Source: an uncultured Methanosarcinaceae archaeon (GTDB lineage: Archaea; Halobacteriota; Methanosarcinia; Methanosarcinales; Methanosarcinaceae). Taken from it: a stretch of DNA of 64,000 nucleotides. Below are positions 8,587 to 35,408 of this stretch, piece after piece. The stretch lies in assembly GCA_963833425.1 (NCBI GenBank), contig CAWHXP010000007.1, positions 32,001 through 96,000 of the forward strand, in the 5' to 3' direction. Made by a program: the position numbers and the translations under genes. Numbering within the stretch: position 1 is the stretch's first letter; each line of letters opens with the position of its first letter. The notes under the pieces were generated by a model. The model did not search any database, had not been told where the DNA came from, and was given only the letters and a program-made list of their open reading frames with translations.

Positions 8587-8822
8587 GAATTTCTTCTCCT
8601 TCACCCGATTACAGAGATATTACTGAGCATAAAAAAGACAGAAGAAATTATTAGGTTATCAAATATTTATAACCGTAGTCTAATAGAAGCTAGCTTGTAC
8701 CCCTTAGTAGCCATTGGACATGATGGTAAAATTACTGATATAAATCTTCAACAGAATTGATTACTAGTTATTCACGGGACGAACTTATTGGTACCGATTT
8801 TACGAACTATTTCACTAATCCA
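8587..8822 (+). pseudogene. PAS-domain sensor kinase fragment
   Basis: IRLSNIYNRSLIEASLYPLVAIGHDGKITDIN...YSRDELIGTDFTNYFTNP, typical of Methanosarcina PAS repeats. Confidence 0.7.
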
Positions 8823-9228: not shown

Positions 9229-9420
9229 TTATGCTCCGTTAACTGTAAAAGCTGCCCATAGTAGGGATGATGGAAAGGCTTCTCATTTGGTGATTCTTCG
9301 GCCATTTTGAAGTAGCAATCCCTGCATTTTTCTATAAATTCTTCGCTTTTACCTTCCCATTTGCCCGAATGGTAGTATTTTGATACTAAAATTCTTGCCT
9401 TTGGGTGCCATTTTCCAGGT
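9229..9420 (-). pseudogene. CHAT-domain protein C-terminal remnant
   Basis: EKPFHHPYY then, restoring one base, WAAFTVNGA-stop (HPyyWAaF signature). Confidence 0.6.
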
Positions 9421-9791
9421 AATGAGAATGATTAATTTTCCTAATTGTAAAAATTTACACTGATTTTGCAACAAAGCCAGATTTTTTGCACCACAACTAG
9501 TTTAAGGAAAGAATTTCCAAAGTACTTAGGAAAACATAACCTTGGATATCGATATCATAAAATTATTTGGGCTTCAATTAATCTACAACTGGATAATCAC
9601 AGTGGAAAAATATTTTTTTAGTCATCCTATAAAATGGGTTGTGGTGCAAAAAGTTCTGTCTATATAAATTTTGGTGGATTTATGGATTACATCCCATTAA
9701 CTGACCAAAGTTAATAGGAGAGCTTCCTACAGTACCGCGGTTGTAGAATTGTTTGTGGATTTTCAATTAGAGAAACAGTTGTTGTTGCGGG

Positions 9792-10811
9792 TCATCCTAT
9801 AAATTTCCCTAATGCAAAGGGCATGTTTCCTACATTCATCTTGGATCTAACAGTGTTTGCTGCAGTGTCAATTATAACGACCGTGTTGTCCCCAGGGTTT
9901 GTCAAATAAACCTTTGTTCCGTCAGGAGTGATTGCAGCTCCTACAGGATTAGATCCAATATGTACCGTGGCTATAACGGTGTTAGTGGATGTATCGATTA
10001 CAGAAACTGTGCCACTTCCCTCATTAGCCACATATACCTTTGTTCCATCAGGTGTGACTGCAGCTTCCCACGGAGTGTTTCCCACATCTATTGAAGCTGT
10101 AACAGTGTATGTAGCTGCATCAATTACAGATACATTGCTGCTTTCTTGATTCGTCACATATACCTTTTTTCCATTTGGTGTGATAGCAATTCCCTTTGGC
10201 TTTAGCCCTACATTCACGGTGGCTGTGACCATGTTTGTAGCTGTGTCAATTACAGTTACATTGTTGCTATCGTAGATTGCCACATACGCCTTTGTTCCCG
10301 CTGGGTTGACTACAACTCCTTCAGGTTCCCCGCTCACATTCACCGTGGTTGTAACCCTGTTGATTGCTGTGTTAATTACAGAGACATTGCTATCTCCTGA
10401 ATTCGTCACATATATAGTTGTTCCATCCGGGGTTACTGCAACTCCCGCAGGACAGAATCCTACATTTATCGTATCTGTGACCTTTTTTGTGGCAGTATCA
10501 ATTATAGATACAGTGTTGCTGCCCTCGTTCGCCACATATACTTTTGTTCCATCATTGGCGACCGTGACTCCTTCTGGTGATGATCCTACATCCACAGTGG
10601 CAATAATGGTGCCAGTGGATGTGTCAATAACCGAGACATTGTTGCTGCCGTCGTTCGTGATATATGCACATGTTGCCTTCGGCGATGAACTTTGTATAGG
10701 AGCTGCCGAAGCTACAGATAAAACGAAAATTAAAGAAAATACCACCAACGAAATTGCCAACTTCTTATTTTCGTTGCTAAATAACTGTTTCACCATTTGT
10801 TTAAGCCCCAA
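9792..10811 (-). CDS. Secreted YVTN beta-propeller repeat surface protein
   Basis: Signal peptide plus about seven YV(T/A)N-x-S-x-x-VSVID repeats. Confidence 0.92.
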   Translation of the reverse strand: MGLKQMVKQLFSNENKKLAISLVVFSLIFVLSVASAAPIQSSSPKATCAYITNDGSNNVSVIDTSTGTIIATVDVGSSPEGVTVANDGTKVYVANEGSNTVSIIDTATKKVTDTINVGFCPAGVAVTPDGTTIYVTNSGDSNVSVINTAINRVTTTVNVSGEPEGVVVNPAGTKAYVAIYDSNNVTVIDTATNMVTATVNVGLKPKGIAITPNGKKVYVTNQESSNVSVIDAATYTVTASIDVGNTPWEAAVTPDGTKVYVANEGSGTVSVIDTSTNTVIATVHIGSNPVGAAITPDGTKVYLTNPGDNTVVIIDTAANTVRSKMNVGNMPFALGKFIG

Positions 10812-11789
10812 ACTCTTGATAAATTTTAGTTAACTTTTAAAACACAATTGTGGAATATATGCATATTATATGCATATACTATAATATATGTGGAAATATA
10901 AATAAGGAACAAATAAATTTATCGGCCATTTTTATCTTTCTACGTTTTGATGATACTAATGGTCAGTAAACTTCTTAATGTAAATTTGACTCAAAGATCA
11001 ATCATCGTTAGCTTGCGCATTTATACCTTTAGTGCTTCTTCCAGCTTCAATATACTTAATATCCTAGAATCTCGAATTCTTATTATTATTCCTAATAATA
11101 AAATTTTAATAACTATAACTATATGTTAGCATAAGTATAAATTATCTGACATTTGTTTTTTTTTTAAACCGTTAACTTTGGTATTCATATCTATTATAAA
11201 ACATTGAACAAGAAGACAATCTTCTTTCGATTGACCTCCAAGAAAGGCGAAAAAGATCCAGAAAAGCAGGCTCCAGAAATGTTTGAACCTCATAAAATTT
11301 TTTACCGATGAAATCGAAATTTTCGATATGAAATTTCCAACTGTGTTTATGTAAAGTACAAAAGTGAGATGAAAATTTTGACGTAGGTTCTATATATGGG
11401 AAATAGTTTCAGAGACTCTCATTTCTGGAATAAGCAATTTCAATGATTTTTTTTCTCAGGAGATCAGATTGCTTCATGGCTTGGATCTTTCTGAATGTAT
11501 ACCAATCTGTGGATAAAATATACAACCACAGAATCTCAAGGATTGTATAGGAAGTACCAAGGTTGATCTAATACAGATAATTCAAGAAGCAGAAAGAAAA
11601 ATAACAAGTCAAAAGAATTTTTTAACCAAAAAAGAAATCAATTGGATAGCAGAGGCAATTATTACTCTACAAGAAAAATAGCCACAATAACGTAGCATCT
11701 AATTGCAAATGATGAGATTTATGAGATTAAAAAAGTGCGAAAATGGGGAAATTCATGAAAGAAAGATTGTCGAGACTGAGAAATCCTAA

Positions 11790-12922
11790 GAAAATTTCGA
11801 TAAACTTCGGATTTTATTTCTTAGCAGGAATTTCTCATATCTTCCACTCAATTTCTCTATTTAATTCCTCTTTTTGGCTTTACTTTATTCTCAATTCTTT
11901 GATTTTAAAGATAGCTTCCGCTATCTTCAATATACTTTTTTTATTTTCAATGTCCTCAATTGATGGAGATTATAACAAAAAGCCGTAAACAACATTTTTA
12001 GATTTACTCTTTTAACAGTAGTAACAAAAACTCTTCCTGCTTTGAAAATTTCATTCGTTACTGAATAAACTCTTTCTCCTGGGACTCTTTTTGAGCTAAT
12101 TCTCTTATTTCTTAATATATCCTTTATTCCCAGCGTATGTCCTTTGACCGTTCTTTTCATTGTTGCATTATACCCTTTCGTTTTTGCTCCAAAGTATCCT
12201 CTGCCCCTATAAACCACTTCTTTTTCCTCTGTTATATCTACATACGAATCATGTACTTACGCAGTTGTTGTTTTGAATCTTCTGATCAGCTCATAATCTC
12301 TGTCTATTATATTATGAAACTTATATCCAAAGTGAAACTTACCTCCCTTCTTTATCCATGTTCCGTCTCTGATTATTCTTGTTTTTGCCTCATCTCTCTG
12401 CTTTTGCATGTCATGGATCTGAATGGATAAAAGTAGCATCCTGAATCATTCATTGCTTTATCCGTAAATCCAGAGCATCAAGTTGGCTTTGCAACTTTCC
12501 CCATATTTTCTTTGAAATTCTCGATAATTCTCTCCCTAAATAGCCATACAGTAGTACTGTCAGGTATGTATTCCAGAAATCCAAGGAATTTCCTAAAAGA
12601 AATTCGATCTATACACTGTTCTCAAGTTCAAAATCAGAGAGCCTGTGCCATTGTTGCAAAATAAGCATTTTGAACATCACAACGATATCAGTTTCAGGTC
12701 GCCCTCCCGAAATGGTTTTGTCGATATACATAGACTCAAGGATAATACGAAACGTTTTCCAATCAATTAAGGAAGCAATTCAGCAAGCTGATCTCCACCA
12801 GATTCAAGACGTTTATACTCTTCTTGAAGAGCAAAATCAATAAGAGTTTTCATGAATATACATAAATATTGACAAATTTAAAGTCAACCATGCTCAAGAA
12901 CATGGAGTTTATCGAAATTCTC
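11790..12922 (-). mobile_element. IS5-family element with inactivated transposase
   Basis: Terminal IRs GA(G/A)AATTTCGATAAACT; transposase fragments QDATFIHSDP, FGYKFH, VYRGRGYFG; near-identical to 53243-54378. Confidence 0.92.
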
Positions 12923-13103
12923 TATAGTAACTACCATAAAAATGAAGAGTATTCCGAGAAATCCAAATGTTTTGTCGTCCCATCTAAATCGTATATTAAT
13001 GTCGTGAAGGCCAGAGATTTTTTGATAATCCTCTAAAGCGTACAAAATATTACATACCATCAATGGAATAAATTGTAGGTGCAGAAAGTCCGAGGTAATA
13101 ATT

Positions 13104-14366
13104 TTGAGAAATGACTCGAGTTCAGAAACGCTTGAAGCCTGGATAATCCGACTTCGGCGCGAATTTCACCAATACCCAGAACTTAGTTTTAAAGAATACG
13201 AAACCCAGAAACAAATACTGAAAAAACTTGGAGAATTGGGAATAGAAGCAAAGAAAATTGCAGATACAGGCGTGCTTGCAAGTATTAAAGGTAATGCCCC
13301 TGGTCCCTGCATCGCTCTTCGATCGGATACTGACGGACTGGAAGTACAGGAAAAATTGACAGAAAGAAACGGAGACTATATTTCAAAAAACAATGGAGTA
13401 ATGCACGCCTGTGGGCATGACGGACATATGGCAATGCTCTTTGGAGCTGCTAGGCTTTTTCAGGAAACTGGGAACTTCCCTGGAGAAGTCCGTCTCATCT
13501 TTCAGCCTGCAGAAGAAATCCCTCAAGGTGGTTCGAAAAGAGTGATTGCAGAAGGAGGGCTCGAGGGGGTGGATGCAATTATAGGTATGCATATATTTAC
13601 CAACTACGAATCGGGTAGCATTGGTCTTCATCCTGGGCCCTTCATGGCAAGCACCAACCGATTCGAGGTCACGCTTAAGGGAAAAGGAGGTCACATATCA
13701 GAACCTGAAAGCTGCATTGATCCTATCAGGATTGCAATCGACTTCATAAATACTCTCTACGCTGCCCTGGAAAATAAACTAGAACCGGATAAATATGTCC
13801 TGGGAATAGGAAAGATCCAGGGAGGAGCTCAATTTAACAGAACTCCTGATAATGTAGGAATCCTTGGAAGCTACAGGACTTTTTATAAGGAGACCACATA
13901 TACTATTGACAAAACTATAAAGGATTGCTTGGATACCTTAATGGAAAAGTATAGGAAACCTAGAGAAGAATTAATAGGTTTTCCAGATTACGATCTTGAA
14001 ATTCTCCATGGCTATCCTGTCCTTGTGAATGACCCTACTTTCACAAGTGCAGTTCATTCAAAACTTCAGAAGAGTCTCCCAGAACTCAAAATATATTCAG
14101 AGATAACAAAAACATTCGCATCCGAAGATTTTGCAAGTTATCTCCAAATAGTGCCTGGAGTATTCATTTATCTAGGCTCAAGGAATCCACAAAAAAAAAT
14201 TGTTGAAATCAATCACTCATGCACTTTTGATATTGATGAAGAAATCCTAATTACTGGCACAAATATTTTTTATACTGTTTCTCTAGACTTTTTGAAAAAT
14301 CCAGAGAAATACATCAATTCTAAAAGAGATTTCCGCAAGAAATATTTCAATCCTGAACTACTTTGA
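13104..14366 (+). CDS. M20 family amidohydrolase
   Basis: RREFHQYPELS, MHACGHDGH, FQPAEE, SEDF and NHS motifs. Confidence 0.93.
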   Translation: MRNDSSSETLEAWIIRLRREFHQYPELSFKEYETQKQILKKLGELGIEAKKIADTGVLASIKGNAPGPCIALRSDTDGLEVQEKLTERNGDYISKNNGVMHACGHDGHMAMLFGAARLFQETGNFPGEVRLIFQPAEEIPQGGSKRVIAEGGLEGVDAIIGMHIFTNYESGSIGLHPGPFMASTNRFEVTLKGKGGHISEPESCIDPIRIAIDFINTLYAALENKLEPDKYVLGIGKIQGGAQFNRTPDNVGILGSYRTFYKETTYTIDKTIKDCLDTLMEKYRKPREELIGFPDYDLEILHGYPVLVNDPTFTSAVHSKLQKSLPELKIYSEITKTFASEDFASYLQIVPGVFIYLGSRNPQKKIVEINHSCTFDIDEEILITGTNIFYTVSLDFLKNPEKYINSKRDFRKKYFNPELL

Positions 14367-22413: not shown

Positions 22414-23307
22414 TCAGAATAGGTCGTGTAGTTTAAACTTGTATTTCCCGAGTTTTCCGTCATAGTTTCCTGCGGAGATCTTCTTGATGCCTGGAACGGT
22501 TACAGCGCACTTAATTCCTGCTCTCATGGCGGCTTTAACGCTGTTTTCATCAAGCCCATTGATAACTATTTCATAAACAGAATTGACATTTGCCGGAATT
22601 TCAGTGTTCTCAATTTTGTATTTTATGGAGGGACAAAATTTTTCGTTAGTTGTAGCCTTCAGGAATTTGTACTTGTTTGCTCCGGATTTGGATCCACTGG
22701 CCACTATACCTCCAGGAAAGGGTGTAATTGTGCCTTCGAGCTCTGCAATTGCTTCCACAGCAACTTCGGCTGCCGTCAGAGCGCTCATCTGTGAGTCTCC
22801 AAAGATAAAGAAATTACCGCCTGCAATTCCATCTAAAGCTCCGATATTTACTTCATTCAGGAAATCTCCTCCCATTGTAGGAATTTTATATACTTTGCGT
22901 CCCGAGATCTGGGATTCTGATTCCATACCATCTCCGAAAAATTTGAGTTTAGAGCCTATGTTAAATTGCTTTTCAGCTTCATAAAGCCCATTGAAAACTG
23001 AAGTTGTAGGAGCTGTAAGTATGCATTGTCCGATCCTTTCAAGTAATTGTTTTTCGAGAGCTTCATATTTGAAATTACAGATTTGGATGTAAACTCCAGG
23101 CCTGTTATCTGGAGTTTCACTTGGGCTTGCTAGTTTTTCGATTCCTGCTTCTGCAGGACACATTATAACGGACGTCGCGAAACCTGTAGCTTCAGTAGCT
23201 GCCACGAGGGCCCAGCGTTTAGTAACGGCGGTGATGAGCACTCGTGAAATCTTGATTTGAAAAGCTTCTGCGTATGTATCTTCGATTTCTACTCCATTGA
23301 TTTCTAT
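22414..23307 (-). CDS. ftr: Formylmethanofuran--H4MPT N-formyltransferase, with ATA at the start position
   Basis: The frame is open upstream of the called ORF: (I)EINGVEIEDTYAEAF...ATEATGFATSVIMCPAEAG...SAGNYDGKLG; 297 aa. Confidence 0.95.
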   Translation of the reverse strand: MEINGVEIEDTYAEAFQIKISRVLITAVTKRWALVAATEATGFATSVIMCPAEAGIEKLASPSETPDNRPGVYIQICNFKYEALEKQLLERIGQCILTAPTTSVFNGLYEAEKQFNIGSKLKFFGDGMESESQISGRKVYKIPTMGGDFLNEVNIGALDGIAGGNFFIFGDSQMSALTAAEVAVEAIAELEGTITPFPGGIVASGSKSGANKYKFLKATTNEKFCPSIKYKIENTEIPANVNSVYEIVINGLDENSVKAAMRAGIKCAVTVPGIKKISAGNYDGKLGKYKFKLHDLF

Positions 23308-23521
23308 AGAAATCCCTCTTTTACAATCATTTTTAATTTAGAGATATTTTAATATATTGTGGGATCGAAAAAAATTATCATCAATTTTACTGGCAATTGA
23401 CTGTAATTAATCAAAAATTCAGGTAAAATTTTTCAATGAATAATCCTACATTTCGCAAATGTATACAGCTGTATATTTCATTTGTCTATTGGCCCATAGT
23501 TATTCTAGAACTCACGTCCCT

Positions 23522-23638
23522 TAGATGTATACACGAATTATTTATTTTCTCAATAAGGATAAAGCTTAAAAATTAATTTACCTTTCAAGAATAATAGTGG
23601 TCAAATAGGCAAACAGATTATACATTTGTGTACATCTG
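23522..23638 (+). repeat. ~115-bp MITE-like repeat, copy 3 (clearest terminal IRs)
   Basis: agatgtatacacgaat ... atttgtgtacatctg inverted ends around the core gcttaaaaattaat...caaataggcaaaca. Confidence 0.75.
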
Positions 23639-23999
23639 AAGAATGTCAGTTAAAATAATCAAATTTGAAACATTCTTTTTTTGGATACTTTAGACCAGAT
23701 TCACTATTTCATATTTTTCGTTCAAGTTTCTTCTTCAATTCCCAGTTTCAAATTTTTTAATTTCTCTTGTCTTACAGGAGAAGCTACTTAATTAAATATG
23801 TTATTTAATCAAATTGTTGTTCAAATTTAGAGATTTGTAACATTTTTGAGAATTTCCAAAATCGGTTTTTAATTCCACTAGCAATTGACTTCAATAAATC
23901 ATAAAATCCAGAAATAATGGCAAGTATCCTGTAAAGAATATTTTTTCATTATCTTCAAAATGATGGTTCGATTTGAAAACTTTAAATAATTTTCAATAT

Positions 24000-24830
24000 T
24001 TATTTTGGTTTTTCATATAATTTGGTTTTCTTCAGCAGGATGCCGCTTTTTGCATGGGATTGTCTGAAGACAGTGTCGTTGGATTTTTCAATTTCTCTTG
24101 CTTGAGTTGCAAGATGAGCGGCAGCTCCCATTATTTCGTGTCCTGCTGCAGCTGTAAGGCATATTTGGTCAAGTTCCTTTAGAGTGAAACAGACTGGGTA
24201 GTTAACCTGTGCTACTTTTTCAGCTATGTGAAGGGCAGCAAGAGCCTTTGCTTTCGCATAGGGATTTGAGAAACCTGCATGTTGAATACATGTTTCTGGT
24301 TTTGCAAAAAGATGTGGAAGCTCCAGTTCCTGTCCAGACTTTCCATGATCAAGTTGAGCGGTTATTCTGTCTAATTCCTCTTGAATAAGTCTCACAACTC
24401 CACAAATAGAGAGAACTTTCATTACATCGGCGTTGAAGGCTACCATTTCTACTGGATCAAGAAACTCTCTTTTTGCTCCTATGAGCGGATCCACCGTCAG
24501 GATAATATATCCAAAGCCTTGTTGCTCCAAAGCTTCTCTGGCTTCTTTCTGTTTTGGCCCATCTGAGATCACAATGCATGGCACTTCCTTCCATGCTTCA
24601 AGGACTGCCGCAGGACCTGGAGCAGTTGCGTTAGGGCTGATAATTACTACAAAGTCTGGATTCCACTGCTTGAAACTTTCAGTATCAATAGCCTCGGCTA
24701 GGCCCATCTTAGCACCTGTTCCAAATACCCGTACTGTGATTCCCTCTCGCATTGCCATTTCATCCTGGATCAGAGTGATAATCTGACTCATCCCCAGATT
24801 ACCCATCTTTATAATGCCGATCTTAACCAT
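24000..24830 (-). CDS. mtd: F420-dependent methylene-H4MPT dehydrogenase
   Basis: KMGNLGMS, GTGAKM, ISPN..APGP, DPLIGAKREFLDPVEM. Confidence 0.95.
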   Translation of the reverse strand: MVKIGIIKMGNLGMSQIITLIQDEMAMREGITVRVFGTGAKMGLAEAIDTESFKQWNPDFVVIISPNATAPGPAAVLEAWKEVPCIVISDGPKQKEAREALEQQGFGYIILTVDPLIGAKREFLDPVEMVAFNADVMKVLSICGVVRLIQEELDRITAQLDHGKSGQELELPHLFAKPETCIQHAGFSNPYAKAKALAALHIAEKVAQVNYPVCFTLKELDQICLTAAAGHEIMGAAAHLATQAREIEKSNDTVFRQSHAKSGILLKKTKLYEKPK

Positions 24831-25379
24831 TTTACCCGTAATCCTGAGTTGACTATTTTCTTCAATAATGAAGTTTCGAAAGAATTTATTAACCTTCTAG
24901 TAATGTACTCCACTATGTGATATTCTATAAATTTATGCTTTATATATGCCTTTTTTCTTTATGTTTATATAATTTATGCCGTAGAAATCTGTAAGGCGTA
25001 CGATTATTATTTAGTTGTCACCAATTAATTACTTGTTACGGAAGCCTTAAGGCAAAGTTATAGATTCAGTCACACAAAGCGGCCCTAAAGATGCATTCGA
25101 GGAACTGATCCGATGCAACAGAGCTCGGGCAGAGCGATGAGTAGTTGTCGGGGATGATTCAAAAGATGCCAGTATCAGATGCAATCTAGTTTTGAGCGTA
25201 ATAATCCTATCTTACTTTCGCACGGATCTGTTGCATCTCATATTTCTAAAAACAAGATTTCTTGCGATATGTTTCTATGTTGGCTCCTCGTATTTTCTAC
25301 TTTATGTTTAAGAAGATCTAAAAATAAAACCCATGGTTATATACATTGTGCAAAAAAAATCAAATTCCGATAAATATCT

Positions 25380-25790
25380 TATGGGAACATTTCCAAAACA
25401 GGAAAAAGATCCTAAGGCGCTTTCACAAATCTAATAGGTAATTTTCTTTCATGGTTTTCTTAACTTGGAGCATTAAGCGGTATTCATATGTTCAATATTG
25501 CAAGTGGGATGGTCGATATCTGAGAATTAGAACGCATATATGTGATATTCGAGACGCAAAGCTTTATTCCCAACCAATTCTAGATCCTTCCTGTAGCTAC
25601 CATCGGAAACAATTGATTTGATAAAACATGAACTTGGGGAAATAGCGGTATAATAAGCAAAAATGCTCCTAAAGTAGTCCACAGCATAAGAGGTGTTCAA
25701 AAAACCTAGACTCGGAGAAAACGATGAACTATCTGAACTCCAATTTGGTATTCGAACACTGTAACTTGGCTACTTTGCGGCGTATGCACA
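25380..25790 (+). pseudogene. fmdE: Formylmethanofuran dehydrogenase subunit E, decayed
   Basis: EKDPKALSQI**VIFFHGFL, GALSGIHMFNIA, ERIYVIFETQSFIP, ATIGNN*; first-gene position of the fmdEFACDB operon. Confidence 0.75.
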
Positions 25791-25814
25791 GAATAACTTT
25801 GAGAGGTAAGCAAA

Positions 25815-26852
25815 ATGCATGAATGTGAACTATTTTCTATCTTCTCCGGACAGAAAACCCGGCAGCTAATCTATATACCTAAAAAATGCATCGGCTGTGG
25901 GACCTGCGTACAAGCATGCCCCAAAAGTAGCCTTTCAGTAGGGGCTGTGGGCGCAATAGTAAGAAAGTTATTGAATGCAGATTTTCTGGAAAAAAAGAGC
26001 GAAGATTGCCTTGTGTGTGATATTTGTGCGAGAGTTTGTCCTACAGGTGCTCTTGAGTTGAGACAAGATGGAAAAATCCTTAATGACATGTCCTATATTT
26101 TCGAGGCCATGAAACCGACGAAAGTAGATGAAAATTGTGTCCACTGTGGGCTTTGTGAGGATATCTGCCCAAGAGCCTGTATTGAAGTCATCCAAAATAT
26201 TTCAAAGGATGGCAGCCTGAAGATGGTTGGAAAGACTCTCATTAATTCGGCGTCCTGCGTTCACTGTGGCTGGTGTGCTGCAGTATGCCCGGTGAATGCA
26301 ATTTTTGTGGAAAAACCCTTTAAAGGACAATGGATCTGGGTTGAGGATGTCTGTCAGACCTGCCATACCTGTATAGAAGTCTGTCCTTCAAATGCCCTTT
26401 TTAGCAAAGAGGCCAAATCCGGAGAAAAAGTCGAAAAGATAACTCTCCGGCCAGATGCATGTATTTATTGTGGAGCCTGTGCAGTTGCCTGTCCTGTAAA
26501 CGCTATTACCGTTCGAAAAACTGCAATCCTTCCGAGTTTGGAGAATAAAGGTCCCCTAGAGAAAAAGATACTCGAAGCTCCTGTTCCGGAAGTTACGCAT
26601 CGCACACGCATAGAAACGGATGAAGATGCATGTCTGGGATGTGGGAATTGTGTTATTGTCTGTCCAGCAAATGCCCTCAATAACCGTGAACTTGCTGCAG
26701 GATACTTAAACAATATGGATGAAAAAGTTCTTCTTGAGGTTAAAAACGGAAAAATTTTTGTTGTAACCCAGGAACTCTGCGGAGAAGATGGAATATGCGT
26801 TCTTATTTGTCCTGTTAGTGCGATCTGGTTTGTAAAAAGAGAGGTGAAATAA
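25815..26852 (+). CDS. fmdF: Formylmethanofuran dehydrogenase subunit F (polyferredoxin)
   Basis: Eight CxxCxxCxxxCP-type motifs (the last has Asp); operon position. Confidence 0.93.
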   Translation: MHECELFSIFSGQKTRQLIYIPKKCIGCGTCVQACPKSSLSVGAVGAIVRKLLNADFLEKKSEDCLVCDICARVCPTGALELRQDGKILNDMSYIFEAMKPTKVDENCVHCGLCEDICPRACIEVIQNISKDGSLKMVGKTLINSASCVHCGWCAAVCPVNAIFVEKPFKGQWIWVEDVCQTCHTCIEVCPSNALFSKEAKSGEKVEKITLRPDACIYCGACAVACPVNAITVRKTAILPSLENKGPLEKKILEAPVPEVTHRTRIETDEDACLGCGNCVIVCPANALNNRELAAGYLNNMDEKVLLEVKNGKIFVVTQELCGEDGICVLICPVSAIWFVKREVK

Positions 26853-28607
26853 ATGGCAGGGACAATTGTGATCAAGAATGGATATGTCTTTGACCCCCTC
26901 AACGAAATAAATGGGGAAATCATGGATATCTTCGTACAGGACGGAAAAGTTGTGACAGATCTTTCTGCGGCTGAACTGAAAACAGGAACGTTTATTAATG
27001 CCTCAGGAATGACTGTCATGCCGGGGGGAGTAGACTCTCATTCTCATGTTGCAGGCTCGAAGGTTAACACCGGTAGGATGATGCGCCCTGAAGACCACCA
27101 TAAAGCAACTATCCAGAAAACTTCACTCCTTCACTCGGGTTCAGGTTATACCGTTCCCTCGGTTTACAAACAGGGTTATGATTACGCATTAATGGGTTAT
27201 ACAACTGTGTTTGAAGCTGCAATTCCTCCTCTCGAAGCTCGCCATACGCATGAAGAAATGCGTGCAACTCCAATTCTTGATATGGGGGGGTATCTGTTGC
27301 TCGGGAACAATTTCTTTATTATGCGCTACCTCCGAGAAGGTGATATAGAAAAGGCTGCTGCTTATGTGTCTTGGATGATGAAAACTCACAAGACTTATGG
27401 AGTCAAATGCGTCAACCCCGCAGGAGTCGAAAACTGGAGTTGGGGAAAAAACGTAAGTTCTCTTGATGAGGCCAACATCCATTTTGAAATTACCCCAAGA
27501 GAGATAATAAAAGGACTTTCCGAGATTAACGAACGCTTGGGCATGCCGATGCCTCTTCACTTGCATGCCAACAATCTTGGCCATCCAGGTTGCTATACTA
27601 TTGCCAAAGAATCCCTCAAAATCCCCGGTAGCATAAAGCCGAGGCAGAACATAAATGTGGAATGGGCTGAAACCAAAATGAATCCTGCAAAGAATCGTTC
27701 AGTATACCTTGCCCATTTGATGTTCAATAGTTTTGCAGGCACCACCTGGGCAGACTTCGAATCTGGTGTTAAAGAACTCGCAGTATATATCAACAACACG
27801 GATCATGTCGTAATAGACAGCGGATGCGTGCCTTTCGGTGAAGCTACACCCATGACCGGAGACGGGCCTGCAATCCATGATATTTATGCACTAACAGGAA
27901 GCAAGTGGTCCAATAAAGACGTCGAGATGGAGTGCGGCTCAGGTGTCCTGCCATTTACCTACCTCAAGTCCAATCCAGTGCACAGCGTGCAGTGGGCGAT
28001 GGGGCTTGAATGTCTCCTTCTAATCAACGACCCTTGGAAGACTATTATGACTACGGATAGCCCCAACGGCGGTCCGTTTACTAAATATCCGGAAGTCATG
28101 ACCTGGCTAGTATCTGAGGCTTACAGGAAGCAAACACTAAGTGAGTGCCACAAATGGGCCAATGATAGGAGTGAGCTCGGAGGAGTGAGACGGGAACTTT
28201 CCTTCTACGATCTTGCGATTCTAACTAGAGCCAACCCTTCCCGGACAATTGGCATGGCGCACAGGAAAGGTTCCCTTGGGGTGGGTGCTGACGGAGATAT
28301 TACAATTTACAACATAAACCCGGAGCAACTTGATCCGAACAATTATGAAGCTCTCCTCAGGACTTTAAGGAGGGCAGAATATACCATAAAAGGAGGTGAA
28401 ATTGTTGTTGCTAAGGGGGAGGTCGTTTCCATTCCAGAGAAACGGACTTACTATTCCGAAGTGCATGTAGAAGACAAAAGGGAAAAAGAGATGCTGGCTG
28501 ATTTGAAGGAATGGTTCAGGTACTATACCCTGGGCTTTGCTAACTACCCAACTCCCAAAGAGTATCTGAGAAACCCGACTCCAATACAGGTTAATGGTGA
28601 GAGGTGA
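26853..28607 (+). CDS. fmdA: Formylmethanofuran dehydrogenase subunit A (binuclear amidohydrolase)
   Basis: GGVDSHSHVAGSKVN, GVKCVNPAG, HLHANNLG, TTDSPNGGPF. Confidence 0.97.
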   Translation: MAGTIVIKNGYVFDPLNEINGEIMDIFVQDGKVVTDLSAAELKTGTFINASGMTVMPGGVDSHSHVAGSKVNTGRMMRPEDHHKATIQKTSLLHSGSGYTVPSVYKQGYDYALMGYTTVFEAAIPPLEARHTHEEMRATPILDMGGYLLLGNNFFIMRYLREGDIEKAAAYVSWMMKTHKTYGVKCVNPAGVENWSWGKNVSSLDEANIHFEITPREIIKGLSEINERLGMPMPLHLHANNLGHPGCYTIAKESLKIPGSIKPRQNINVEWAETKMNPAKNRSVYLAHLMFNSFAGTTWADFESGVKELAVYINNTDHVVIDSGCVPFGEATPMTGDGPAIHDIYALTGSKWSNKDVEMECGSGVLPFTYLKSNPVHSVQWAMGLECLLLINDPWKTIMTTDSPNGGPFTKYPEVMTWLVSEAYRKQTLSECHKWANDRSELGGVRRELSFYDLAILTRANPSRTIGMAHRKGSLGVGADGDITIYNINPEQLDPNNYEALLRTLRRAEYTIKGGEIVVAKGEVVSIPEKRTYYSEVHVEDKREKEMLADLKEWFRYYTLGFANYPTPKEYLRNPTPIQVNGER

Positions 28608-28611
28608 AGTA

Positions 28612-29421
28612 ATGACAGAAGTAATACTTATTCCAAAAAGGAAGGTTGATATTAAACTGGAGGCAGATATTATTACTCCTGACTCTTTTGCAGGCAAAAG
28701 TTCAGAAGAAATCGGAAATCTTTCAATCTGGCAGGGACCAAGGACATATCCTCTCTGCGAATTTTTTGAAGTAAGAGGAAATGGAGGTATTTCTGAAGCT
28801 GATACTATAATTCGCATAAAAGGTGATGCAAGCAGGGTCAAAAGAATCGGAGAGGGTATGAGTGCAGGAAAAATTGAAATTGAGAGTTCTGCAGGAATGC
28901 ATTTAGGGACTGGAATGAAAGGAGGCAAAATCTTCGTTTTTGGAGATGTAGATTCCTGGCCAGCTATGGAAATGACAGGTGGACTAGTTCACATTAAAGG
29001 TAATGCTGGAGATCATGTTGGCTGTGCTTACAGAGGCAAATGGCACGGTATGAAAGGTGGGCGAATTGTAATCGAAGGTTCAGCTGGGCATCAGGTAGGG
29101 GGCGGAATCGATGGAGGCGAAATCTTTGTGGAGGGAGATGTTGAAAGCTTCTGTGGGATCCGCCAGAACGGTGGATTAATCATCGTGAAAGGCAGAGCTC
29201 TTCGGGGTGTAGGTGCCGAAATGACAGCCGGGACCATAGTGATCGGGGGCAAAATCGAACGCTTTTCTCCGGGCTTCGAATATATTGGCATTGAAGAAGG
29301 GCTCAATCTTGGCGATTTTGAGTTAAAAGGTAAGTTCAAGAAATTCATAGGGGATTATGCGATTAGCACGCGAGCAAAAGGAGTGCTTTATGTGGCTGTG
29401 GATACAAACTCCGAGCTTTGA
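28612..29421 (+). CDS. fmdC: Formylmethanofuran dehydrogenase subunit C
   Basis: LEADIITPDSF, GXGXG beta-helix repeats, AYRGKWHGMKGG; RBS gaggtga before the ATG at 28612. Confidence 0.95.
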   Translation: MTEVILIPKRKVDIKLEADIITPDSFAGKSSEEIGNLSIWQGPRTYPLCEFFEVRGNGGISEADTIIRIKGDASRVKRIGEGMSAGKIEIESSAGMHLGTGMKGGKIFVFGDVDSWPAMEMTGGLVHIKGNAGDHVGCAYRGKWHGMKGGRIVIEGSAGHQVGGGIDGGEIFVEGDVESFCGIRQNGGLIIVKGRALRGVGAEMTAGTIVIGGKIERFSPGFEYIGIEEGLNLGDFELKGKFKKFIGDYAISTRAKGVLYVAVDTNSEL

Positions 29422-29430
29422 GGTTAGATA

Positions 29431-29820
29431 ATGAAAGTATTACTCATTACTGGAAGTACCATTGAAGAAGGCAGACTTGCAAAGGGCGGGGATAAATTTA
29501 AGGCTGAATATGCTAAAGAGTGCGCAGTCTGCTGGATTTCTCCAGTTGATTTTGTGACTCTCTGCTCTCCTGAAAAAGTTAAGGTGACAAGTAAAAGCGG
29601 TAAACATTCGGTTGTAGTTTGTGCAAAATGCATGGATTCAATCCAACCAGGGAATGTATTCATGCCAAAAGCAATCTGGTCCAATGTAATTGTGGATCCA
29701 GATACCCTTTCTACGGGATCCCCTCTCTACAAAGGTGCCCCAGTGGGAATTGAGCTCACCGAAGAAAATGTACTAAGTGTCGAAGATATTGTGCTAAAAG
29801 TTTATGTCGGAGGGCAATGA
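29431..29820 (+). CDS. fmdD: Formylmethanofuran dehydrogenase subunit D
   Basis: LITGSTIEEGRLAKGGDK, FMPKAIWSNV, TLSTGSPLYKG. Confidence 0.93.
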   Translation: MKVLLITGSTIEEGRLAKGGDKFKAEYAKECAVCWISPVDFVTLCSPEKVKVTSKSGKHSVVVCAKCMDSIQPGNVFMPKAIWSNVIVDPDTLSTGSPLYKGAPVGIELTEENVLSVEDIVLKVYVGGQ

Positions 29821-31124
29821 ACATGGTGTTTAAAAATATATTCTGTACGGCCTGTGGAGCTGCCTGTGATGACATCCAAATAGAACTAGGGGATGGCACA
29901 ATTGAAACTAAAAATGCGTGTAAGATTGGAAATGCCAAATTTAAGGAAGTTGTAAGTTCCAATAGGCTTCAGCAGCCCCTCCTGAAAAAAGATGGACGGC
30001 TGATGCCTGTAGCTTGGGATGAAGCTCTTGAAAAGGCCACAGATATCCTTATTTCTGCCAAACGTCCCTTGCTTTTCTTGGGCAGCGAGGTATCCTGCGA
30101 GGCTCACGAAGTAGGGCTCCATATTGGAGAATACCTTGGTGCAGTTGTAGACTCAAATACATCTATCTACCATGGGCCAACAGCTATGGGAATCCAAGAA
30201 GCTGGCAAAATCGGTGCAACAGAAGGGCAGAAAAAAAACAGATGTGACCTAATAGTCTATTGGGGAACCAACCCTCTTGAGTCCGTCCCGAGGCAGATGT
30301 CAAGGTATGATGTTTTCCCTCGTGGCTATTGGACTAAACGTGGACGTTTCGACAGAATAATCGTCACGTTGGACCCGAGAAGGACTCCTACTACTGAAGC
30401 TTCAGACTTCCACGTGCAGCTAAAGCCTAATTCCGATTATGAACTTATCAGTGCTCTTCTTACACTACTGCATGGTAAAATTCCTCACCCTTCAGTTGAA
30501 AAAATTACAGGTATTCCTATTTTGGTATTAGAAGAGATACTCGATATGATGAAAAATTGTAATTTCGGTGTAATTTCAGTGGGTTTAGGGCTTTCATCAT
30601 CAATTGGGAAACACAGGAATGCAGAAATTGCCATGAACCTTGTAAAAGAACTGAACAATTACACCAAATTTACTCTTGGAGCTCTCAATAGCTACTGCAA
30701 CGCTGTAGGCTTTAACCAGGTGGCCTCCTACATGTATGGATATCCTTTCGGGCTCGACTTCACACGAGGATATCCACGTTTCAACCCTGGAGAATTTACG
30801 ACTGTAGACATGCTTCGGGAAAGAGACGTGGATGCAGCTCTTATAGTGTGCTCTGATCTTGTTAGTAATCTCCCTGCTGACTGTGCGGCCTACCTTGCCG
30901 AAATACCCCTGATTTGCCTATACATTGTACCTTGTCCAACAACAATTATTTCAGATCTCGTGCTCCCTGGAGTCATTGATGCCATGGAATGTGATGGGAC
31001 TTTTTACAGGCAAGACGAAGTGCCAGTGTACTTAGAACCTTTTACAAGTTCGCCATTTGAGTTCACAAAAAGTAATGAAGATACCTTAAGACAGCTTTTT
31101 GCAAAAATTCGACAGAAGAAATAA
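29817..31124 (+). CDS. fmdB: Formylmethanofuran dehydrogenase subunit B homolog with a substituted active site
   Basis: CTACGAACDD..C Fe-S motif and full length are retained; SIYHGP replaces TICHGP and LNSYCN replaces LRGHCN. Confidence 0.93.
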   Translation: MNMVFKNIFCTACGAACDDIQIELGDGTIETKNACKIGNAKFKEVVSSNRLQQPLLKKDGRLMPVAWDEALEKATDILISAKRPLLFLGSEVSCEAHEVGLHIGEYLGAVVDSNTSIYHGPTAMGIQEAGKIGATEGQKKNRCDLIVYWGTNPLESVPRQMSRYDVFPRGYWTKRGRFDRIIVTLDPRRTPTTEASDFHVQLKPNSDYELISALLTLLHGKIPHPSVEKITGIPILVLEEILDMMKNCNFGVISVGLGLSSSIGKHRNAEIAMNLVKELNNYTKFTLGALNSYCNAVGFNQVASYMYGYPFGLDFTRGYPRFNPGEFTTVDMLRERDVDAALIVCSDLVSNLPADCAAYLAEIPLICLYIVPCPTTIISDLVLPGVIDAMECDGTFYRQDEVPVYLEPFTSSPFEFTKSNEDTLRQLFAKIRQKK

Positions 31125-31289
31125 ATCAAGCATATATTTTTTTCGACAGATATGCTGGAGGAAAAACAATACCTAAAAAAGTGAGTATCTTTTCTCCTAC
31201 ATTTTGTTAGAAACTATACTCTTCAACAAAATCCTAAAAAATTCCAATTAAATGGCCTCTGTGGAAAAAGTCTGCGAATGTTCCGGTCT

Positions 31290-31660
31290 GACACAAGACA
31301 ACTTTTGTTATGGAACCGTACCTTAACCTTTGTATATAACTCACCATTAGGAGCTATACTTGGTGTAGGTATGAGACATTAAAGGCTTATTTCAAGCCAA
31401 CTGATAATAAAAAATATAAAACAGCAATAAGTAGGCTTCTTCAAAGTAACACAGGCTAATCCTACAATTACCTAGAGTAACCCTGCTGATAGATCTAGGC
31501 CGTGTCATTGAGCTATGATCAATTATATGCAGGAACTTCACAAGCAGCTTGAATTTTTTACTCTCATCCATACGCAGGTACTGTATTGGTTGTAGGTAAC
31601 CAAATATTGCATGTTGATTTTAACCTGCTGATGCTTTAAATTGTACTAACGCATATAAGA
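31290..31660 (+). pseudogene. Surface protein remnant with Ig-like (MBG-type) repeats
   Basis: TFVYNSPLGAILGVG and VTQANPTIT*SNPAD fragments. Confidence 0.55.
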
Positions 31661-32149
31661 TCATTTATTATTGTAATGTATTGCGCAGAAAGAAAAAGAT
31701 TTTATCATGGGTCTGAGCATGCTATATTCTTGCCTTAAATTGGGATAACACTTCTAATACTGACTGAAGAATAAAAAATCAAACAACTCATTTTTCTAAT
31801 TCAATAGAAAATACGGGACTGAAAAATTGGCAGTTTACAAAACGTTCAGTAAAAGATGATAGTACGCAGAGTCATGTTTATTCTAACAAAATTTCTGTCT
31901 TTCTTATTTTCACTAATGCGTAGTTTTTAAAGTAAACATGTGTATCTTTTCTACTGCAACTTTCCGTTACCATTTTTTTTTGCACTCTTTAACTCCAAGC
32001 TTAAAAGTGTCGAAAGACGCATTATATTGATGTTAAACGAAATATTTATTTCGAGTCCAATTTGTTTTTATATTTACGAATTCACTGCTAACTGTATTCT
32101 CATCTGCACGATAATAAAACAAGATGCTCATGTTTTAGATGTGGATACT

Positions 32150-32900
32150 CTACTTTATAATCATTAGGGTTACAGATCTTCTTTACATTGATCGAAACAC
32201 TCGAAGATGCTATATTAAAGTCTACATTATCAGTTGGTATGAATAATACATTCGATGTCTGCATACCTTCTGTCAATGTAATTCCTGAGGTTGGAGTATA
32301 GACAAAGGTTCAAGGTACTGAAGCAGTTGTATCTAGCTGAGTGCTACTCAATGGTATCTTACAAATTATGTTCGCAGGTTTACTCCAGATAATTGTAAGA
32401 GTCGCTTTGTTTAATTAATCAAAACAGTCACTAATACTGTAGTGTAGCTCGTAGGATCACTTGGTGTGAAAGTAGCAGTCATGCCTGCTGCCGACCTGTA
32501 CTTAATACAGTTCCTGAATTTACTATAGTGCCCGAAACTGTTGTATATACCGATATTCCAGGCAGTGAGGAATTTTGAGGTGTTAAGCAATTGCATTTAG
32601 CTGAATGCTGTTCCATTTGTTATATTCTCAAGGGTATTCCAGATACAAGTAGTAGCCTCCGGGTCTACCTTAATCTTAACAATAGTATCCATTTGAGTAT
32701 AGAAAACATTATTACTCGGTGGAAAGTAGTACTAAATGTCTGCTATTGATTTGCACTCAATATGGTTCTTAATGGCGGAGAGTGGATAAAGATCCCAGAT
32801 ATAACAGGATTTTCAGGCGCTGAAGCAGTTGTATTAAACTGAACGCCGCTTAATGTTGTTCACATATTATATCAGCAGGGTTATTTCAGATAATTGTTTG
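32150..32900 (-). pseudogene. Surface protein remnant with Ig-like (MBG-type) repeats
   Basis: KATLTIIWSKPANII...LSSTQLDTTASVP*TFVYTPTSG...; TATFTPSDPTSYTT. Confidence 0.7.
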
Positions 32901-33649
32901 AATCGTTGAAACAGGTGTTACAAACTGTTCTAAAGCGGCAGGTTTGTGTCCTATGGTTATTAAATTTTTCAGTCAGTCTTTTATTTTAGAGATCTTGGTG
33001 CCAAAATCTAAGCATTTTTTATTTATTAATCCAAGTCTTTGTTCGAATTCTTCGATCAGGATATGTTTAAAATATAAATTGAAATTAGACCGATATGTAG
33101 AATGTTTCCGGCACAAAGAAACAATTCAAAAAGTATATTTATTCTTGAAAAAAAAACGGAACAACAAAGCTAACAACTGTTGGCTTTCGTAATTTAACAT
33201 ATATTTTAGTAAAAACAATTTATTTCCAGAACAACAGGCAAAATGTCCTCAATTTAGGCTGAAAAATGAGAAAAACACATAGGTTTCAGCACAAAAAACA
33301 ATGCATCTGTGTAAACAATAGAAACAGTAAAAAATTGGATTTGTATTTGGATTATTAATATAAATTTATCCATTCGTTTCAAGCATTTCCATCCTAAATT
33401 TTATGATCCATAGATCTATCTTGACCTAATACCAAGCTTTTTGTTGCAGAAATCTATTTTCACCTACGACGAAACATCGATTCTATTTAGGTCCCATGAA
33501 ACTGCTGCAGGAGCAGAATAGCACCCCCCCGTCTAAACTTTCTCAGCCACTCCAAACAGTGCCATTCTAATCTTTAATTTATAATTATAAATTTGATATT
33601 TAGAGTTGAGCTTGGAAGGAAAAAATAGAGGGCTAAATTTATTTTAGCC

Positions 33650-33985
33650 CTAGAACTCCTTTGATCTACCGACCCTTATCGTAGTATCCACATGCTCCAG
33701 AACACTATCTGAAGGATCCCAAGGCCGGTGTAATCTCAGGCGGATCTCCTGGCTTCCTAGAGACCTCGCCGCGAAACGTATTACCCGCATCCCGCCGCGA
33801 CCCATCGTCATCCTGTGAGCCTCTGCGTAGGTCGACTCGATGAACTCGACTACGGAGCCTTTCGTTTCCACCTCCCACCCATAGCCTGTGGTTAGATTCT
33901 CTTCGAGATGAAATACGATCAAGTCACCAAGGTGAGCTTCAATTATGTTACCCAGGTAGTTCTGTGTGATCACAATCTCCGACAT
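33650..33985 (-). CDS. Chagasin-family (I42) cysteine protease inhibitor
   Basis: LEENLTTGYGW, MGRGG and RPW loops. Confidence 0.88.
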   Translation of the reverse strand: MSEIVITQNYLGNIIEAHLGDLIVFHLEENLTTGYGWEVETKGSVVEFIESTYAEAHRMTMGRGGMRVIRFAARSLGSQEIRLRLHRPWDPSDSVLEHVDTTIRVGRSKEF

Positions 33986-33997
33986 ACACACTCTCCT

Positions 33998-35408
33998 CTA
34001 GCGAAGCGATTTCCAACACGCCAGATTTCATGTTGTCCCTTCAAAGGGAGGACCCAGCATATCTGTCTGACAAAACGTCGGTAAGTCAGCATGAGCCAGT
34101 TATTAGTCCCCACCAGAGTGATCAATCGCGACATGTAGGTCAATTGGCCTGCGTTCATGGACATGGTGGTCGCATAGTCCTTGTCCAGTTCCTAATTTCT
34201 CCGTTGCTCCTTGCCCTATTTGCAGCCTTACACCCATGAGCATGGATTAGCAGTACAATGAGCGTTCCGGAAGCAAAGTCAATTGTGTAGCCATGGACCC
34301 AAATCTTTCAGTAGCATGTGTAAGTTCCGTCACGGCCAAGGAGCTGGGGACCGGGACATGCTGATTGGCGGCCTGAAACGACCCTTTGCGGTACGATGCC
34401 GCCAACATCGTACTCGGCGTCGGGTCCCAAGTACACGCCTGTCGTGAAGATTTGAGGGTTTGGACCATTAGCGAGGGACGTCGACCCATCAGCCACGATA
34501 GACACGTGTATCGCCTTCGAAAGGGTAGAATGTCACCGACAGCACATTGTCGTTGTTGGTGGTGTAAGCGATCCACATGTAGCCAGATTCCCCCCAGTCC
34601 TTCCCCCACGAGTTCTTGATTCTCCATGCTTGCTTGCTGTTGTTCCATCCCACCAGCAAGACCGCATAGTTGATGTCGGCATTGGATCCCTCGTTGAATA
34701 CCCCACTAGTATAGGCTTGAAAGGCCGGTGTCACCGCGACGGTCACTCCGAGCGGCCCGTACTCGAAAAGCGCCTTCTTCAGCGCAGCGACCGAAGGGAT
34801 CTCCACAGTGCTGTCGACATAGCCCCAGGCAACTGCCTTGTAAGGCAGTTGCACCCTGTATTGCACGTTCCTTTCGTCGCAACATAGGAATAATCATCTT
34901 CTTTTGCCGCTCCCTTGTCGATCAGATACTGGTAGGCCCACCAGCCACCATCGCAATCGCCGTAACCTCGGAGTCGAGTGTATCCTGTTCTGCGCTGTCA
35001 ATAAACTCCTTGTTCAGATCGCATAGCTTCCTTCGAACGCTCCGTGCGTGCCAAAAACCCAACAGGAACCACATCTCTTCTGGTCCCGCACATCTGTGAC
35101 TCCATTGTAATCGACCCAATTGAACTTATCCTCATCAGCCATGCATTGCTCAAGTAATATCCGCTTTGTTTCTTTCAATGACCTTGTCAATCTGTCATGT
35201 AGCTGTGCCTGCTTCAACCAGTTCGCAGGCGGCTTCATGCCATGATCTTCTCGATGGGAAAATCGATCGCCTTTGTATAGCCCAATTCGAAGGTCTATTG
35301 CTTGGTCGCTGCTTCATCCCGCAAGCTGGCGATGTTTGCCTTGATATGGGCTGATGCGCTCAGTTCCCTTTTCACATAGTCATTTGGAGGTTCGTTCGAA
35401 TTTTCCAT
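33998..35408 (-). pseudogene. Papain-like C1A cysteine peptidase, frameshifted, with a C-terminal extra domain
   Basis: VRDQKRCGSCWVF, NYAVLLVGW (catalytic His replaced by Tyr), WRIKNSWGKDWGESGY; several frameshifts; GC-rich. Confidence 0.88.

Follow-up and report, generated by a model that had tools for sequence, protein, structure and literature searches.

Loss of the metal-ligating cysteine and the second-sphere arginine from FmdB in a selectively maintained fmd operon of environmental Methanosarcinaceae

In the molybdenum (Mo) and tungsten (W) formylmethanofuran dehydrogenases, Fmd and Fwd, Cys118 of the B subunit is the protein ligand of the metal, and His119, Arg288 and His290 (Methanothermobacter wolfeii numbering) surround it, according to two papers (PMC6926001, PMC11656701). 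The first of these also describes Fhc of Methylorubrum extorquens (FhcABCD, 6S6Y). Its B subunit is a scaffold with Ser for Cys118, in which His119, Arg288 and the iron-sulfur (Fe-S) domain are missing and three loops occupy space that a pterin would need; a FwdD-type subunit and a polyferredoxin are absent, the formyltransferase Ftr (FhcD) is itself a subunit of the complex, and FhcA is an intact amidohydrolase by which formate is split from the formyl-furan cofactor (PMC6926001). A non-catalytic FdhA-like ‘Molybdop’ subunit, encoded in HdrA2-FdhB clusters of Methanosarcinales and anaerobic methanotrophic archaea (ANME), is proposed to be structural (PMC12054007), and another study mentions in passing some FwdB-family matches without the Cys (PMC10100899). 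For Methanosarcina acetivorans, fmdE1F1A1C1D1B1, fmdF2A2C2D2B2 and a lone fmdB3 have been listed without residue analysis (PMC2838876). Considered here is an fmdFACDB operon in a 64-kb stretch of DNA, “the window”, from an uncultured Methanosarcinaceae archaeon (contig CAWHXP010000007.1, positions 32,001 to 96,000). Its FmdB is full length and has Tyr in place of the ligand Cys and Asn in place of the Arg. It is probable that the redox site is dead and that the subunit is retained by selection.

The gene in question, fmdB (29817..31124, + strand), is the last of the operon and encodes 435 amino acids (aa) that match TIGR03129 at 584.6 bits, the cutoff being 327.8. The closest solved relative, 9sw6_J (595 bits, E = 4.9e-178), aligns to residues 4-433 without a gap; it is the FmdB of the Methanothermobacter marburgensis Mvh-Hdr-Fmd supercomplex (PMC13580544). 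The N-terminal [4Fe-4S] motif (29844..29921, +) is intact, all four Cys (C10, C13, C17 and C35) being present. Codon 118 (30168..30170, +) is TAC and gives S-I-Y-H-G-P, with Tyr for the Mo/W-ligating Cys or selenocysteine (Sec). Codons 291-293 (30687..30695, +) are AAT AGC TAC, and the resulting Asn-Ser-Tyr, within L-N-S-Y-C-N-A-V-G, stands where Arg-Gly-His, with M. wolfeii Arg288 and His290, is expected. Codon 369 (30921..30923, +) is also TAC, a Tyr in ICLYIVP replacing a conserved Asp. The three solved FmdB/FwdB chains compared, 9sw6_J, 9sfi_Q and 5t5i_B, all read Cys or X (Sec)-His-Gly-Pro at the first place and Arg-Gly-His at the second, with an acidic Asp or Glu at 369, and Cys118 and Arg291 are found in 53/53 canonical loci of the genome scan described below. 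In the second sphere of the window protein His119 is kept, Arg has become Asn291 and His has become Tyr293. By the TIGR03129 cutoff, the Fe-S motif and co-encoding with fmdA, fmdC and fmdD the gene is an fmdB; the Cys/Sec ligand and the Arg/His second sphere are absent from its product.

The operon is contiguous in the order fmdF-A-C-D-B, with neighbouring ends that abut or overlap. The polyferredoxin gene fmdF (25815..26852, +; 345 aa) matches NF042909 at 220 bits, under its cutoff of 375, and is followed by fmdA (26853..28607, +; 584 aa; TIGR03121, 826 bits), fmdC (28594..29421, +; 275 aa; TIGR03122, 290.7 bits) and fmdD (29431..29820, +; 129 aa), the stop of which overlaps the fmdB start by 4 nt. 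The metal-site motifs of the FmdA amidohydrolase are intact in alignment to FwdA/FmdA structures: GGVDSHSH, the Lys of GVKCVNPAG, HLH and TTDSPNGGP. FmdD has a single change of note, R80K, which is fixed in the clade described below (Lys in PKAIW, against Arg in 49 canonical FmdD sequences). An earlier note on this DNA, made without database searches, had reported SIYHGP and LNSYCNAVG in a full-length FmdB, an intact N-terminal cluster motif and intact FmdA motifs, and had suspected that ICLYIVP and PKAIW might be further cofactor-site changes; as readings of the sequence all of these stand, the first read directly from the codons and the last two on comparison with the solved chains and the canonical sequences.

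The losses extend beyond the window. A scan of species-representative genomes with fmdB, in which 80 of 215 loci were kept, each with flanks of up to 10 kb on either side of fmdB, gave 53 canonical loci and another that is broken (L073), 21 Cys-less genes that stand alone, and five loci (L001, L002, L003, L005 and L076) that group with the window at a value of 100 in the Shimodaira-Hasegawa-like approximate likelihood ratio test (SH-aLRT). The canonical loci have Cys-His and Arg-Gly-His and, where upstream DNA was examined, lie in fmdFACDB operons except L035 and L043. The five related loci come from bog, fen and other environmental metagenome-assembled genomes (MAGs) of Methanosarcina or Methanosarcinaceae; their fmdB is 86-87% identical to the query and in all five lies inside an fmdFACDB operon (the contig of L005 ends within fmdA). 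All six members of this clade have TAC at codon 118, and at 291 all six encode His or Asn (codon CAT or AAT). The protein clusters P0001 (95% identical) and P0002 (88%), likewise with Tyr-His, belong to this type too. Over these eight sequences Tyr118 and His119 are invariant, and positions 291, 292 and 293 have three to four states each, 292 being Gly, Ala or Ser and 293 being His except for the Tyr of the window and the Asn of P0001. Tyr293 and Tyr369 are found only in the window and rest on one assembly, residue 369 being Asp in the five other clade loci and in P0001. Judged from these sequences, loss of Cys118 and Arg291 is a trait of a clade, with at least eight sampled lineages, rather than private to the window.

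Among the 120 closest database homologues, Cys118 is absent from 46 (Gly in 38, Ala in three, Tyr in two, Val in two and Asp in one), and a single clade of 50 rows (FastTree support 95) contains these 46 together with the query; in the tree the window FmdB nests inside Methanosarcina FmdB. The stand-alone, or orphan, Cys-less genes are the closest relatives of the Tyr118 clade in the tree: the two lie on one side of a branch with an SH-aLRT of 82-84, and a mixture model applied without the active-site columns gives this grouping too, so that at this support a single Cys-less ancestor for the two is neither shown nor rejected. No second close fmdB of the five related MAGs is present among the 80 loci kept of 215, though these MAGs are incomplete and an fwdB of ~36% identity would be undetectable by the scan. 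Assignment of the window operon to the M. acetivorans-type fmdF2A2C2D2B2, which has no fmdE, was considered and rejected: Methanosarcina sp. T3 has a second operon without fmdE (L014) in which the Cys is kept, and the window carries an fmdE remnant, which contradicts that assignment and implies descent from an fmdEFACDB operon.

FmdE is encoded together with Mo-type fmd operons and has been suggested to act as a chaperone (PMC2954224). Where intact, as in the canonical loci L034 and L004, it has 208-229 aa and the Pfam FmdE domain. A remnant of its gene lies between mtd and fmdF in the window, L001, L002, L003 and L076, recognizable by alignments of 36-60% identity that are gapped or divided between two frames, with 5-6 in-frame stops per lineage; frame changes or gaps are present in four of the five lineages. 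In the window (25303..25700, +) tblastn with the intact L034 and L004 proteins finds it in two frames with six in-frame stops. All five lineages have the stop that follows ‘LSQI’, and three share a second one, which shows that fmdE died before the five diverged. In the ~5.3 kb of fmdFACDB next to this ~0.6-kb gene there is, over the same time, not one stop or frameshift in six lineages. Intact fmdFACDB beside decayed fmdE is regarded as the strongest argument against neutral decay.

Substitution rates agree with this. The ratio of nonsynonymous to synonymous substitution rates (dN/dS) within the clade, computed by the NG86 method as a ratio of means over five loci with 200 codon bootstraps (L005 was left out of the bootstrap), is 0.175 for fmdB (95% confidence interval 0.138-0.230) and 0.126 for fmdA (0.098-0.163), with 0.161 for fmdC, 0.272 for fmdD and 0.266 for fmdF. 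Comparator genes of the same lineages have similar values (ftr 0.10, the intact copies of mtd 0.17, mch 0.18 and a LarA-like neighbour 0.17), which puts the constraint on fmdB at the level usual for genes in these genomes. For 12 canonical loci the ratios are 0.036 for B, 0.043 for A, 0.11 for F, 0.11 for D and 0.13 for C, and the known tendency of dN/dS to be higher between closely related sequences accounts for part of the gap between clade and canonical values. The constraint on fmdB has shifted from the strongest among the subunits in canonical operons to an average one in the clade. On the terminal branch of the window fmdB has 25 nonsynonymous and 41 synonymous changes and fmdA 16 and 50; counts of fixed synonymous and nonsynonymous differences between the clade and its canonical sister are too few for interpretation. 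A neutral pseudogene is ruled out by these ratios together with the internal control that fmdE provides.

Nor do the substitutions fall evenly. Measured against 52 canonical relatives, ten of the 237 invariant sites of FmdB are changed clade-wide (V12A, M37I, T116S, C118Y, M157I/V, R291H/N, Y322F, A346F/S, H351N and L399H/Q), and the window adds V132I, I183V, H293Y, V296A and D369Y for a total of 15. In FmdA two of 232 invariant sites are changed clade-wide (A173S and I184V) and two more in the window only, all conservatively; in FmdF it is one of 102 (L339F), with one more in the window and neither at a Cys, in FmdC one of 78 (G124A) and in FmdD one of 42 (R80K). If residues 118, 119, 291 and 293 are taken as the catalytic ones, the ten changes of the clade strike at least two of the four (P = 0.009) and the 15 of the window three of the four (P = 0.0008). 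FmdB also has the relatively longest clade stem, 0.054 of the tree length, where the other subunits have 0.023-0.039. The earlier note had named neutral dN/dS and scattered changes as what would speak against it; the ratios are far from neutral and the changes are concentrated, and the scaffold-like retention that it proposed is reasonable given selection and an intact FmdA.

The operon has unusual neighbours. About 2.5 kb upstream of it, on the opposite strand and outside it, is ftr (22414..23307, -) for formylmethanofuran:tetrahydromethanopterin formyltransferase, with Pfam FTR and FTR_C and with 297/297 aa aligning to M. barkeri Ftr (1m5s_A); mtd (24000..24830, -; NF002162, 402 bits) is intact in the window. 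Clustering of ftr, mtd, fmd and mch is confined to this clade, since within the examined flanks ftr, mtd or mch is near fmdB in 0/74 other loci. The window cluster spans 22414-31124, and those of L001 and L003 (both 2574-14229) and of L076 also include mch and a LarA-like gene; no mch follows in the window, where 31125-33650 is AT-rich and without long open reading frames (ORFs). Such clustering of one-carbon (C1) genes recalls the mtd-mch-fhc clusters of methylotrophs. At the Met1 position of ftr there is ATA in the window (23305-23307, -) and an Ile codon in 5/5 lineages (with L001, L002, L003 and L076); no in-frame ATG, GTG or TTG occurs upstream of it before a stop, and the 21 codons after it still encode the conserved Ftr N-terminus. 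This suggests either non-AUG initiation or a start 22 codons later.

The course of events can be traced as follows. In the common ancestor of a Methanosarcina lineage sampled from bog, fen and soil, Cys118 became Tyr and Arg291 His, the latter changing later to Asn, and fmdE died in the same ancestor. Thereafter the Arg-Gly-His loop drifted, the window lineage adding H293Y, V296A and D369Y, with the rest of FmdB and all of FmdF, FmdA, FmdC and FmdD remaining intact. The complex would no longer interconvert CO2 and formate at FmdB. FmdB would persist as a structural subunit that joins FmdA, FmdC, FmdD and FmdF and closes the internal formate cavity, and the remaining chemistry would be that of the binuclear-metal amidohydrolase FmdA, formyl-methanofuran + H2O <-> formate + methanofuran. 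That interconversion of formyl-methanofuran and formate is the surviving activity can be put forward only tentatively, the odds being somewhat against it, and to the hydrolase-scaffold reading as a whole we give a probability of about 0.4.

Several features weigh against that reading. Condensation of free formate with methanofuran is endergonic (PMC11656701), which leaves the hydrolytic direction alone plausible. A pure scaffold and hydrolase should not need electron wiring, yet the FmdB Fe-S Cys and every invariant FmdF Cys are kept; the pterin-capping subunit FmdD is kept with only R80K, and a path for formate to exit from the complex is hypothetical. Supply of the substrate is also in question: in L002 mtd (4176-5012) is interrupted by three in-frame stops, each at a Glu codon, and in L076 mtd is frameshifted (4202-5016) and mch has an in-frame stop (13258-14220), so that without further copies elsewhere those genomes would be unable to make formyl-methanofuran from methyl groups. 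Lastly, much of the cofactor site appears to remain. A search of 1.84 billion representatives yielded 113 full-length FwdB/FmdB family members at 50% clustering, of which 32 have Cys at 118 and 15 have both Cys-His and the Arg. Positions were counted as family-conserved if retention was at least 85% among those 15 and at least 97% among the 53 canonical loci. There are 49 such positions, of which 47 are unchanged in the clade and 45 in the window. The Cys-less representatives, 81 in all, retain 36 of the 49 as well, and these 36 say little about the cofactor. The 13 others, kept in less than 50% of Cys-less representatives, are linked to the Cys (C118, H119, G120, P121, N152, D207, G258, N268, R291, V296, G325, D347 and D369). 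Of these the clade keeps 11 and the window nine, compared with a mean of 12.3 in Cys-bearing representatives, 7-11 in orphans and a mean of 3.8 in distant Cys-less proteins. No pocket-filling indel is present in the window FmdB in the gapless alignment to 9sw6_J, a check made at the sequence level. The title of the earlier note, that the molybdopterin active site had been removed, was accordingly too strong, with 45/49 family-conserved positions, the four Fe-S Cys and 9/13 Cys-linked positions still there. On this sequence evidence erosion of the cofactor site is only begun: the metal ligand and substrate-binding residues are gone and most cofactor-associated residues remain.

What remains of the site is the basis for supposing that the pterin is still bound, its metal either absent or held differently (by the phenolate of Tyr118 or by no protein ligand at all), with an altered redox or electron-transfer role. 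The Fe-S Cys, FmdF, FmdD and 11 of the 13 Cys-linked positions are kept in the clade, N152, D207, N268, D347 and D369 among them, and the much older orphan clade keeps these same five polar residues under purifying selection. Tyr118 and His119 are invariant in 8/8 sequences in which 291-293 drift, the alignment to a solved FmdB has no gap, and arsenite oxidase binds its cofactor without any protein ligand. However, we know of no enzyme of the dimethyl sulfoxide-reductase family with Tyr as metal ligand. The Arg291 needed for formate/CO2 chemistry is lost and its loop is drifting, the proposed chaperone FmdE is dead in 5/5 loci, and the window has also lost D369 and V296; moreover, all six copies use the one TAC codon, and conservation of the Tyr may reflect no more than a short time. 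Retention of the pterin in such a role is considered rather unlikely, but it stays in contention.

The operon could instead be an obsolescent relic, with a W-type Fwd encoded elsewhere or the C1 branch dispensable and with genes that persist incidentally or decay slowly, no hydrolase role being involved. The C1 cluster is indeed eroding, fmdE being dead in 5/5 loci, mtd broken in two of five and mch stopped in L076, with the Met1 position of ftr an Ile codon in 5/5. In addition fmdB has gone from the most constrained of the canonical subunits (0.036) to average (0.18), the window has the further conserved-site changes H293Y, V296A and D369Y, and several other genes in the window are broken. 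Yet all five genes have a dN/dS of 0.13-0.27 after the inactivating changes, with confidence intervals far below 1, and fmdA (0.126) is held as strongly as ftr. The 5.3 kb of the operon has no disabling lesion in six lineages, against 5-6 stops in each fmdE, and the start/stop overlaps between its genes are preserved. That the operon is such a relic is judged rather unlikely, though still a serious contender. The chance that the substitutions are sequencing or assembly errors is, on the other hand, vanishingly small. Tyr293 and Tyr369 are indeed confined to the window, and frameshifts in related MAGs, such as that in L076 mtd, may be technical. But Tyr118 and the loss of Arg291 recur in five independent assemblies and two protein clusters, and they are base substitutions and not indels; at codons 118 and 291 error is thereby ruled out.

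The window complex can be compared with described systems. It shares with the canonical fmdEFACDB of Methanosarcina, and with the complexes 9SW6 and 5T5I (M. wolfeii), the gene order (a remnant of fmdE, then F, A, C, D and B) and the subunit set, and likewise conserves the Fe-S motif, the FmdA metal site, FmdD and FmdF. It differs in Tyr118, Asn291, Tyr293 and Tyr369, in its dead fmdE, and in having ftr and mtd (and mch in relatives) clustered alongside. With Fhc it has in common a B subunit without the catalytic Cys and Arg and an intact A amidohydrolase, the side on which FhcA releases formate. Unlike Fhc, it keeps the FmdB Fe-S domain, FmdD and the FmdF polyferredoxin, and has no indels. 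The match of the window FmdB to 6s6y_B is at E = 1.5e-5 only, and its descent is from Methanosarcina FmdB, outside the FhcB lineage. The term Fhc-like, used in the earlier note, therefore holds for the B subunit without Cys and Arg and for the intact A, and fails for the retained Fe-S domain, FmdD and FmdF and for the missing indels; by analogy the complex may be Fhc-like in function only and is no member of the Fhc family. The ‘Molybdop’ protein resembles the window FmdB as a MopB-family subunit without the key Cys, but falls in another branch of the family near FdhG/FhcB, belongs to another complex, has Pro/Phe protruding into the site and is not an Fmd subunit.

The 21 stand-alone Cys-less fmdB genes across Methanosarcina (L031, L037, L039, L041, L042, L045, L046, L052, L053, L057-L063, L065-L068 and L072) mostly encode Gly-Asn-Gly-Pro, residue 118 being Gly (or Ala, Val or Asp) and residue 119 Asn, with Arg291 usually kept and the Fe-S motif intact. 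In most of these loci the gene is at about 10001-11400, and titles include M. barkeri (a MAG), M. spelaei and Methanosarcina sp. T3. No fmdF, fmdA, fmdC or fmdD is beside the orphan gene in the examined DNA of 21/21 loci, 15 of which have at least 8 kb upstream covered. Like the window fmdB, the orphans have Cys118 replaced, keep the Fe-S motif and most conserved positions, and are under purifying selection (dN/dS 0.07-0.21 in nine close pairs); they differ in standing alone, in Asn119 and in mostly keeping Arg291. The polar residues N152, D207, N268, D347 and D369 are kept in 19-20 of 20 members. Genes for a molybdate-type ATP-binding cassette transporter (SBP_bac_11 binding protein, permease and ATPase) are near 11 of the 21, and L067 adjoins nif genes. 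The orphan product may serve in place of the usual B subunit, or it may be a Mo/pterin-related protein. The orphan paralogues are possibly the ‘fmdB3’ listed for M. acetivorans and M. barkeri (PMC2838876). In the openly searchable literature, subscription papers being outside the scope, no description of a Cys-less FmdB in Methanosarcina was found for either the orphans or the clade of the window.

Two further loci, L043 and L035, have a Cys-bearing fmdB with ‘NSTVCHGPT’ that is also without fmdF, fmdA, fmdC or fmdD in 9-10 kb upstream, and stand-alone fmdB thus exists both with and without the Cys. The contig of L053 is binned as ‘uncultured Spirochaetaceae bacterium’; the protein of its fmdB is identical to that of Methanosarcina sp. 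UBA293 (L052), and the assignment is probably a binning error. In the wider family the Cys is absent from the ligand position in 81/113 representatives (within P0121-P0270), and 95-98% of these keep the four Fe-S Cys; close relatives of such Cys-less proteins (P0315, P0316, P0318 and P0324) bear bacterial titles (Thermodesulfobacteriota and Pseudomonadota). An FwdB from an ANME-1/Halobacteriota MAG, P0218, has Tyr for Cys and Asn for Lys/Arg, which is the pair of changes seen in the window, in an unrelated lineage. Its family otherwise has Cys-His (99/118 aligned relatives), and its close relatives have Lys-Gly-His. Tyr118 as a recurrent functional solution was considered and finds no support, P0218 being the sole distant Tyr-His protein and a singleton in its family.

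Elsewhere in the window there are broken genes, namely cobW pieces, a sulfatase fragment, C1 peptidase pieces and transposase pieces besides the fmdE remnant. A genome full of frameshifts, as the earlier note had it, is borne out by these to an extent, but many housekeeping genes are intact. No mod/wtp, Moco-synthesis or fwd genes lie within the 64 kb of the window. Positions 4530-5560 and 6634-6984 have a GC content of 48-51%, against 30-40% elsewhere; within them a cobW-like gene is broken into two ORFs and a short piece of a sulfatase gene is present. This GC-richer stretch looks like decaying acquired DNA. At 33650-35238 (-) a chagasin-family peptidase inhibitor (I42) adjoins a papain-family (C1) peptidase that is broken into at least two frames. 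Truncated transposase ORFs are at 53759-54241 and 61908-62294 (DDE_Tnp_1; DDE_Tnp_IS240/rve).

A bolder proposal takes in the orphans. Methanosarcina would have evolved, separately from bacteria, a Cys-less FmdB that turns Fmd into a non-redox formyl-methanofuran hydrolase, the peat form having taken over as the catalytic subunit of the only Mo-type operon and the orphans of other species being an alternative B for the canonical FmdFACD. This is judged unlikely. If it were true, Cys-less FmdB could supply biosynthetic formate and explain formate formation in species without formate dehydrogenase; M. acetivorans is known to form formate. The orphan genes of cultured Methanosarcina, a genus with genetically tractable members, make this a testable system.

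For the organisms of peat, fen and soil the immediate consequence is that routine annotation would overstate the enzyme. The protein passes all the usual tests for FmdB, and metabolic reconstructions would assign to their Methanosarcina an Fmd able to reduce CO2 or to serve in oxidizing methyl groups. With the redox residues missing, positions 118 and 291 need checking before metabolic calls are made from fmd genes. For the family, as the 81/113 Cys-less representatives suggest, non-catalytic FwdB-like subunits are apparently common and under-studied. The complex of the window is a natural intermediate of the kind passed on the bacterial road from Fwd to Fhc: the catalytic residues were lost first, and it still has both the Fe-S domain and pterin pocket of FmdB as well as the capping subunit and polyferredoxin. 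As such it shows which constraints fall first.

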